This document shows positions 48,958-49,612 of a stretch of DNA of 64,000 nt, piece after piece. The notes beneath the pieces were generated by a model. That model did no database searches. It was not told the DNA's origin and saw nothing but the letters and a program-made list of their open reading frames with translations. Position numbers and translations under genes: made by a program. Origin of the DNA: Escherichia coli (lineage in GTDB: Bacteria; Pseudomonadota; Gammaproteobacteria; Enterobacterales; Enterobacteriaceae); the NCBI RefSeq assembly GCF_046105845.1, contig NZ_CP151004.1; one strand, given 5' to 3'. Numbering within the stretch: the first letter of the stretch is position 1; every line of letters begins with the position of its first letter.

Positions 48958-49224
48958 ATGGATATTAACAACAAAGCCCGCATTCATTGGGCATGCCGCC
49001 GTGGTATGCGCGAACTCGATATTTCAATCATGCCGTTTTTCGAACATGAGTACGACAGCTTAAGCGATGACGAAAAACGCATCTTTATTCGTCTGCTGGA
49101 ATGTGACGATCCGGACCTGTTTAACTGGCTGATGAATCACGGTAAACCGGCCGATGCAGAACTGGAAATGATGGTCCGACTCATCCAGACACGGAACCGG
49201 GAACGTGGTCCTGTGGCAATCTGA
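48958..49224 (+). CDS. sdhE: FAD assembly factor SdhE (YgfY/CptB)
   Basis: 88-aa ORF with the conserved RGMRELD motif. Confidence 0.93.
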
Positions 49225-49612
49225 TTTGCGCGTCTCCTGGCGCGCACAGTGGCTTTCCTTGCTGATTCATGGGCTGGTTGCCGCTGTTATTTTACTCATG
49301 CCCTGGCCGCTCAGTTACACCCCGTTATGGATGGTGTTACTTTCGCTGGTGGTGTTTGATTGCGTTCGCAGCCAGCGACGCATTAATGCTCGCCAGGGGG
49401 AAATTCGCCTGTTGATGGACGGGCGTTTGCGTTGGCAAGGGCAGGAGTGGAGCATCGTCAAAGCGCCGTGGATGATTAAGAGCGGCATGATGCTGCGTTT
49501 ACGTTCTGACAGTGGTAAACGGCAACATTTATGGCTGGCAGCCGACAGCATGGATGAAGCCGAATGGCGGGATTTACGGCGGATATTGTTGCAACAAGAG
49601 ACGCAAAGATAA
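49205..49612 (+). CDS. ygfX: Inner-membrane protein YgfX (CptA)
   Basis: 135-aa ORF with two TM helices; overlaps the sdhE 3' end by 20 nt. Confidence 0.9.

Follow-up and report, generated by a model that had tools for sequence, protein, structure and literature searches.

Anatomy of the sdhE-ygfX locus and the start of ygfX

The analyzed stretch (hereafter the window) comprised 64,000 nucleotides of the Escherichia coli contig NZ_CP151004.1 (assembly GCF_046105845.1) and contained, at positions 48,958-49,612, two overlapping genes on the same strand with the layout of a two-gene operon: sdhE (ygfY, cptB), coding for a flavin adenine dinucleotide (FAD) assembly factor, and ygfX (cptA), coding for a membrane protein. 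An earlier note, made from the sequence alone, had named both genes, assigned 88 aa to SdhE and described a 20-nt overlap between them. The identities and the SdhE length were confirmed by the listing of open reading frames (ORFs), Pfam and NCBIfam, while the overlap was located at 49205-49224, where the RefSeq and K-12 annotations agree, and was found to be kept in orthologues. The locus is an ordinary, already annotated chromosomal sdhE-ygfX bicistronic operon of Escherichia; the RefSeq/PGAP annotation and that of K-12 MG1655 (b2897/b2896) give both genes identical lengths and let them overlap by the same 20 nt. The junction of the two genes consists of the following elements.

48958..49224, plus strand: sdhE (ygfY/cptB), coding sequence of the FAD assembly factor, 88 aa, from ATG 48958 to TGA 49222-49224 (ORF listing, direct reading)
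49205..49612, plus strand: ygfX (cptA), coding sequence of 135 aa with a GTG start, from GTG 49205 to TAA 49610-49612 (ORF listing)
49205..49224, plus strand: dual-coding overlap of 20 nt, GTGGTCCTGTGGCAATCTGA, read as R-G-P-V-A-I-stop at the end of SdhE and as M-V-L-W-Q-S-D at the beginning of YgfX
49190..49204, plus strand: purine- and G-rich tract inside sdhE, CACGGAACCGGGAAC, a candidate ribosome-binding signal of ygfX (wobble entropy 0.34 bits, CGG fixation)
49226..49228, plus strand: TTG, codon 8 of YgfX, one base past the sdhE stop and the one start with which the overlap would vanish; not regarded as the true start (seen only in the window, K-12, E. albertii locus L012 and the distant locus L005)

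The ygfX frame is +1 relative to sdhE, and the last six sdhE codons double as YgfX residues 1-7. Upstream, this frame is first closed by TGA 49169, and no ATG, GTG or TTG occurs between that stop and GTG 49205; the later in-frame candidates are TTG 49226 (codon 8), TTG 49259 and ATG 49298 (codon 32).

The choice of start was examined in 80 species-level Enterobacteriaceae loci gathered by means of an SdhE alignment, which recovered this family only and gave 81 sequences with the window, and in a wider sampling of 12 distant loci obtained by exact contig look-up of diverse YgfX representatives. In the window, in the 80 Enterobacteriaceae loci and in the 12 distant loci ygfX was located directly downstream of sdhE on the same strand, the exception being a homologue in Candidatus Accumulibacter. 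The GTG at -20 was present in 81 of 81 Enterobacteriaceae sequences, the window included, and the GTGGTCCTGTGGCAATCTGA segment was almost invariant among them. The overlap was kept in the Enterobacteriaceae and as far out as relatives whose YgfX is only 23-40% identical: a gene-called overlap of 20 nt was present in L004, L005, L006, L007 (Mixta), L011 and L096 (Xenorhabdus), while its length was 26 nt in L008 (Pantoea-like), 14 nt in L009, 23 nt in L097, 29 nt in L094/L095 and 19 nt in L010, the sole locus with ygfX in the other frame. The sdhE stop was thus placed 14-29 nt downstream of the ygfX start in every sdhE-linked relative examined. An ATG served as the start at the overlapping position in L009, L010, L011, L094 and L097, and in L004, L006 and L094 no alternative start was present within at least 20 codons.

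Were the overlap an annotation artefact, YgfX would begin either at TTG 49226 or at Met32 (49298), with the GTG merely the first start picked by gene callers. The location of this TTG 1 nt past the sdhE stop in the window and K-12, and the existence of shorter database forms in relatives (104-aa Pantoea, 111-aa Tatumella), are in line with such an explanation, which is nevertheless very improbable. The TTG is missing in most species, which have CTG, TTA, CTT or CTC at its position and no further start until at least 28 nt past the sdhE stop, while the GTG is universal in the Enterobacteriaceae set; L004 and L006 have no other ygfX start nearby, and L011, L094 and L010 use an overlapping ATG. 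Furthermore, YgfX residues 2-7 are conserved in the family and modelled as a confident strand, a Met32 start would delete the first membrane helix, and Arg83 of SdhE is fixed as CGT, the only arginine codon creating the GTG start. The earlier note had considered the case of a start removing the overlap combined with an overlap not conserved among relatives; what was found instead was a rare TTG and an overlap conserved to distant relatives. The comparison of sequences confirmed that the 20-nt overlap is real and no start-codon artefact.

The ygfX frame was open further upstream in several Citrobacter, Kluyvera, Pluralibacter and Yokenella sequences (L018-L029, L035-L043, L063, L067, L074, L079, L081, L084), where ATG or TTG codons would give overlaps of 62-86 nt; these upstream starts were not conserved. 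The start of YgfX is annotated inconsistently: the Citrobacter and Salmonella proteins (P0018, P0045) are given 152-154 aa, and at the other end are the short Pantoea and Tatumella entries. Both the longer and the shorter database versions are probably wrong.

Nucleotide-level constraint and proposed translational coupling

Variation at the third codon positions of sdhE was expressed as entropy over the 81 Enterobacteriaceae sequences, with Met and Trp codons excluded, and compared with codons 2-77 by the Mann-Whitney test.

sdhE codons 2-77, rest of the gene: mean wobble entropy 1.16 bits (reference)
sdhE codons 78-82, the 15 nt before the GTG: mean wobble entropy 0.34 bits (p = 2e-4)
sdhE codons 83-88, the overlap: mean wobble entropy 0.12 bits (p = 4e-5)

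Wobble variation in ygfX resumed at its codon 8, right after the sdhE stop. Arg83, from whose codon the GTG start takes its G and T, was CGT in 81/81 sequences. Upstream of it, Arg79 was encoded by the rare codon CGG in all 81 sequences and Arg81 by CGG in 70 of them, while the five conserved arginine positions elsewhere in sdhE (8, 14, 15, 18 and 45) were occupied by mixtures of CGT and CGC, with CGG not exceeding 11%. Three sites of the overlap were variable, and at all three the substitutions were silent or conservative in SdhE (G84 GGT/GGC, P85 CCT/CCA, I88L) whereas they changed YgfX residues (V2A, L3Q, Q5H), so that, within the Enterobacteriaceae set, constraint seems to be stronger on the SdhE frame and on the initiation signals. 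Judged by this alignment, purifying selection clearly acts on the overlap and on the GTG start and, because of that, the annotated ygfX start can be taken as sound. In the CACGGAACCGGGAAC tract GGAA occupies -12 to -9 relative to the GTG, a distance at which a weak Shine-Dalgarno contact could form, and the tract is very likely a weak ribosome-binding signal for ygfX embedded in sdhE.

Translational coupling is a plausible consequence of this anatomy and its conservation. The 35-nt junction (49190-49224) is constrained at the nucleotide level, with both frames having to be kept, and the weak GTG in combination with the weak embedded ribosome-binding signal would result in a low YgfX synthesis tied to the translation of sdhE. 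Low and sdhE-linked translation of YgfX is expected because the weak GTG is buried in the final 20 nt of a translated gene, 17 nt before the UGA. Two routes can be envisaged: ribosomes terminating at the UGA may go back and re-initiate 17 nt upstream, or ribosomes translating sdhE may keep the ygfX start site unfolded. Both correspond to mechanisms proposed for coupled gene pairs in general, i.e., post-termination back-scanning and unfolding of the start by upstream translation (PMC12548453). Coupling across a spacing of -38 to -50 nt has been documented for phage coat-lysis pairs (PMC12548453), and in the pairs of phages fr and MS2, similarly to sdhE-ygfX, the downstream start is located well before the upstream stop and in a different frame (PMC12548453). 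In the phage pairs, however, coupling was demonstrated experimentally, whereas for sdhE-ygfX it is deduced from anatomy and conservation.

We consider a sdhE-ygfX operon with a constrained 35-nt junction, an embedded weak ribosome-binding signal and a low YgfX synthesis tied to sdhE translation as the best reading of the locus, with a probability of roughly 0.75. Several observations weigh against it. The pairing of the CACGGAACCGGGAAC tract with the anti-Shine-Dalgarno sequence is weak, at approximately -4 kcal/mol, and no better than that of the sdhE site itself, albeit by a crude measure. The local hairpin at 49190-49215 (-10.8 kcal/mol) includes the GTG, but the 131-nt region containing it does not fold unusually well (z = -0.95). 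The overlap is also not universal: a 37-bp gap between sdhE and ygfX was reported in Shewanella oneidensis (PMC8621075), and in Candidatus Accumulibacter (Betaproteobacteria; L092 and L093, 2501-2938) the YgfX homologue is unlinked from sdhE. Finally, overexpressed E. coli YgfX was reported as toxic and as binding FtsZ and MreB, according to the accounts of Masuda et al. (2012) given in PMC8621075 and PMC3985639.

The competing explanation at the level of translation is that ygfX is translated independently from an internal ribosome-binding site, the overlap reflecting genome compaction without functional coupling. A constrained, conserved G-rich tract with GGAA at the observed distance is what an autonomous ribosome-binding site would be expected to look like, and, at 20 nt, the overlap exceeds those of 1 and 4 nt, the best-documented cases of termination-reinitiation (PMC10666635, PMC12548453). 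On the other hand, with a weak match to the anti-Shine-Dalgarno sequence and a GTG located inside a translated ORF, over which elongating ribosomes pass, some dependence on sdhE would be hard to avoid, and the distance of 14-29 nt between the ygfX start and the sdhE stop in all sdhE-linked relatives examined also speaks against independent translation. Independent translation is regarded as possible but distinctly less probable.

Two further devices were considered and rejected. An RNA hairpin as the coupling element is a possibility at most, given the z value above and the fact that the hairpin sequence is not kept in the distant loci. A programmed +1 frameshift producing a SdhE-YgfX fusion, considered in view of two-domain proteins of 198-217 aa, was dismissed because these proteins were singletons or nearly so, with the frame change after SdhE residue 28, 60, 72, 84, 86 or 88. 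Such proteins, of 166-217 aa and with both Sdh5 and Cpta_toxin domains, were encountered in metagenome and Logan assemblies (P0003, P0004, P0006, P0007, P0009, P0012, P0013, P0021), and the scatter of their junctions suggests that they arose by sporadic indels in the DNA or by errors of assembly.

The two proteins and the toxin-antitoxin question

The SdhE of the window matched Pfam Sdh5 (PF03937; 5e-26, 90.8 bits against a cut-off of 27) and, over residues 1-88, the NCBIfam equivalog NF008130 'FAD assembly factor SdhE' (198.4 bits against a cut-off of 120). The match to PDB 1x6i_A (YgfY) was likewise full-length (residues 1-88, E = 8e-59), and the SdhE chains of PDB 6c12 and 6b58 were also recovered, in keeping with a small helical-bundle protein. 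The protein carries the RGxxE motif, known as the conserved motif of flavinylation factors (PMC8621075), in which R15, G16, M17 and E19, together with the preceding R14, were invariant in the SdhE alignment. It is, therefore, a regular member of the SdhE/Sdh5/SDHAF2 family (PF03937; PDB 1x6i, 6c12, 6b58) in its full-length profile match, its motif and its 88-aa size, and its sole special feature is the double use of its last six codons, in which the beginning of YgfX is encoded as well. Attachment of FAD to SdhA and FrdA by SdhE is known from the literature for E. coli and Serratia, as cited in PMC5042078 and PMC8621075, and the product of the window gene would act in the same way, promoting the covalent flavin attachment to SdhA and FrdA.

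YgfX matched Pfam PF07254 (Cpta_toxin) with 1e-49 and 168.5 bits (cut-off 27.3), residues 2-131 aligning to positions 1-132 of the 133-position profile, and the same profile was matched by all 43 members of the YgfX family alignment. Its AlphaFold model had a predicted local distance difference test score (pLDDT) of 93. The earlier description of YgfX as a protein with two transmembrane segments was borne out by the Kyte-Doolittle peaks and by the modelled helices at residues 12-31 and 36-62. The features of the two proteins are located as follows.

49000..49014, plus strand: RGxxE motif of SdhE, R15-G16-M17-R18-E19 (translation)
49238..49297, plus strand: YgfX transmembrane helix 1, residues 12-31 (AlphaFold helix, pLDDT above 90; Kyte-Doolittle maximum of 2.0 at residues 22-28)
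49310..49390, plus strand: YgfX transmembrane helix 2 with a cytoplasmic extension, residues 36-62 (AlphaFold helix; hydrophobic core at about residues 38-53)
49397..49606, plus strand: cytoplasmic domain of YgfX, beta-rich and with a helix at the C-terminus, PH-like fold, residues 65-134 (AlphaFold model)

The Kyte-Doolittle profile of YgfX showed two hydrophobic segments, at approximately residues 16-32 and 38-53. R9 and R13 precede helix 1, the PWPLS loop between the helices is uncharged, and the basic stretch RSQRRINAR follows helix 2; by the positive-inside rule, the latter would place the C-terminus in the cytoplasm, and the overall charge distribution fits a topology with both termini inside. 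The N-terminal strand encoded by the overlap (residues 2-8) was modelled confidently, and W4, Q5, L8 and S11 were conserved in the 43-member alignment. Since the aligned lengths were 79-83 while only about 73 YgfX residues follow helix 2, this strand is probably part of the PH-like domain. YgfX would thus be an inner-membrane protein with cytoplasmic termini, in which a short beta-strand at the N-terminus is followed by a membrane hairpin of two helices and by a cytoplasmic domain of the PH-like type. A profile search for solved relatives of YgfX returned only noise (gap-junction proteins, E of about 0.2). A single-sequence search against 1.84 billion representatives gave 135 clusters only, and the Erwiniaceae proteins were only 27-38% identical to YgfX of the window; by these comparisons YgfX is a quickly evolving protein.

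In the collection of 5,426 complete E. coli genomes the sdhE-ygfX locus was single-copy in 5,425; one genome was without a match to the locus, one had it in two places, and one match was located on a plasmid. The neighborhood ygfZ / sdhE-ygfX / fldB-xerD-dsbC-recJ was kept in Mixta, Xenorhabdus and Pantoea-like genomes. In a metagenome lineage with 70% GC (L094, 1-2947, and L095) the order was sdhA-sdhB-MAPEG-sdhE-ygfX, and the pair is therefore physically linked there to the genes of succinate dehydrogenase (SDH); the 29-nt overlap in this lineage begins with an ATG start, with no alternative start for 23 codons. In Accumulibacter, ygfX is preceded by fabF and runs convergently into nadB, with which it shares 29 nt and beyond which rpoE and a RseC-like gene are located; the product of nadB, L-aspartate oxidase, belongs to the flavoproteins of the SdhA/FrdA family.

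The pair had been presented in the earlier note as a toxin-antitoxin-like module (CptAB), which was correct as a statement of the literature, although the claim itself is contested and was not reproduced in Serratia or Shewanella. Taken literally, it would mean a true type IV module (CptB/CptA), in which YgfX inhibits the polymerization of FtsZ and MreB and arrests growth, SdhE counteracts it, and the overlap prevents the production of toxin without antitoxin. In favor of this are the title of the Pfam family ('Membrane-bound toxin component of toxin-antitoxin system'), the results obtained by Masuda et al. (2012) on overexpression in E. coli, in the form cited by PMC8621075 and PMC3985639, a similar claim for Acinetobacter baumannii (PMC8132199), and the order of an antitoxin gene overlapping a following toxin gene, which is typical of toxin-antitoxin operons. 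In Serratia, however, the two proteins interact yet a toxin-antitoxin phenotype was not detected (PMC3985639), and in Shewanella a ygfY deletion was viable and ygfX was non-toxic (PMC8621075), with no interaction of YgfX with FtsZ or MreB seen in S. oneidensis (PMC8621075). The role of SdhE is independent of such a function and structurally documented in complexes with SdhA and FrdA (PDB 6c12, 6b58), and neither YgfX alone nor the pair produced a PADLOC match. The locus was, in addition, among four 'toxin' groups with a prevalence of at least 80% in all sequence types studied (PMC10790755).

The distribution described above bears on the same question. Modules of the CbtA/CbeA type are accessory, multi-copy and prophage-linked. 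In contrast to these type IV systems (YeeV/YeeU), sdhE-ygfX is core, single-copy, conserved in its neighborhood across the Enterobacterales and located after sdhAB in one distant lineage. The accessory, patchy or mobile distribution that is usual for toxin-antitoxin loci, albeit not a strict definition of them, was thus not observed for sdhE-ygfX, and its core, single-copy and syntenic occurrence fits a housekeeping operon linked to SDH and to fumarate reductase (FRD) better than a mobile toxin-antitoxin module. A genuine type IV toxin-antitoxin function is, on balance, improbable.

In Serratia sp. ATCC 39006, where the operon is known as sdhEygfX, YgfX resides in the membrane and interacts with SdhE, and no toxin-antitoxin phenotype was seen (PMC5042078, PMC3985639). 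The two Serratia genes are co-transcribed (PMC5042078), and regulation of the operon by RsmA, RsmC and FlhDC has been described. It can tentatively be proposed that YgfX is not a toxin but a PH-like docking partner anchored in the inner membrane and retaining SdhE there, at the site of flavinylation and assembly of SdhA and FrdA; in that case the 35-nt junction would be an element devoted to coupling, by which a low YgfX:SdhE synthesis ratio is fixed, and the reported toxicity would be an artefact of overexpression. This extended proposal is possible but distinctly less probable than the coupled operon itself.

Genomic setting and significance

The neighboring genes are arranged in the order trhA (plus strand), ygfZ (minus), sdhE-ygfX (plus), fldB (minus), xerD (plus) and dsbC (plus), as in K-12 around b2896/b2897. 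The promoter scan detected no promoter-like site between sdhE and ygfX, and the matches of the terminator scan within ygfX were at chance level. A hairpin is present in the 39-nt gap between the convergent ygfX and fldB.

49616..49645, no strand assigned: hairpin TGACGGC...GCCGTCA with a 7-bp stem, in the gap between ygfX and fldB (RNA fold)

Folding of the region 49595-49670 gave -25 and -27 kcal/mol for the two strands. The hairpin, which was not called by the terminator scan, has a U-rich tail only on the fldB (minus) strand; it likely marks the end of the operon and resembles a fldB terminator, perhaps serving ygfX as well.

The E. coli K-12 pair of sdhE (ygfY, b2897) and ygfX (b2896) was identical to that of the window in gene order, gene lengths, the 20-nt overlap and the junction sequence. 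The SdhE proteins were the same and the YgfX proteins differed in a single residue (S103 in the window, G in K-12), with 12 nucleotide differences over the 655-nt pair. The best identity of the window to any of the 5,426 complete E. coli genomes did not exceed 98.8% over the 1.2-kb locus (48700-49900) and 98.4% over 20 kb (40000-60000). By this measure, the window comes from an Escherichia/Shigella lineage that is somewhat divergent from the complete E. coli collection.

Three other features were recognized elsewhere in the window. Matches at the Rfam gathering level were obtained on the minus strand for 6S RNA (ssrS) at 33976-34159 (139.8 bits) and for SIB RNA at 33177-33327 (136.5 bits), the latter RNA serving as antitoxin in a toxin-antitoxin locus of type I, Sib/Ibs. 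An exact match to AGGGGGTATCTTTGAC, the +1 frameshift element of prfB (release factor RF2) with its Shine-Dalgarno-like segment and CTT TGA C slippery site, was located at 53809-53824 on the plus strand, where no such match would be expected by chance; in the K-12 annotation prfB is given as a two-piece join in the same neighborhood.

The two genes, their overlap and both roles proposed for the pair were already known from databases and literature. All statements of the earlier note agree with what is established for E. coli sdhE-ygfX in annotation and literature. What the present analysis adds is confirmation that selection acts on the overlap and on the ygfX start, an embedded candidate tract, a confident PH-like model of YgfX, and a genomic context that argues against a typical toxin-antitoxin module. 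As to the ribosome-binding signal of ygfX, the fixed rare CGG codons preceding the GTG provide a concrete candidate. The core, syntenic, SDH-linked distribution of the pair, together with the predicted PH-like architecture of YgfX, weighs against listing sdhE-ygfX among the typical toxin-antitoxin systems when genomes are surveyed.

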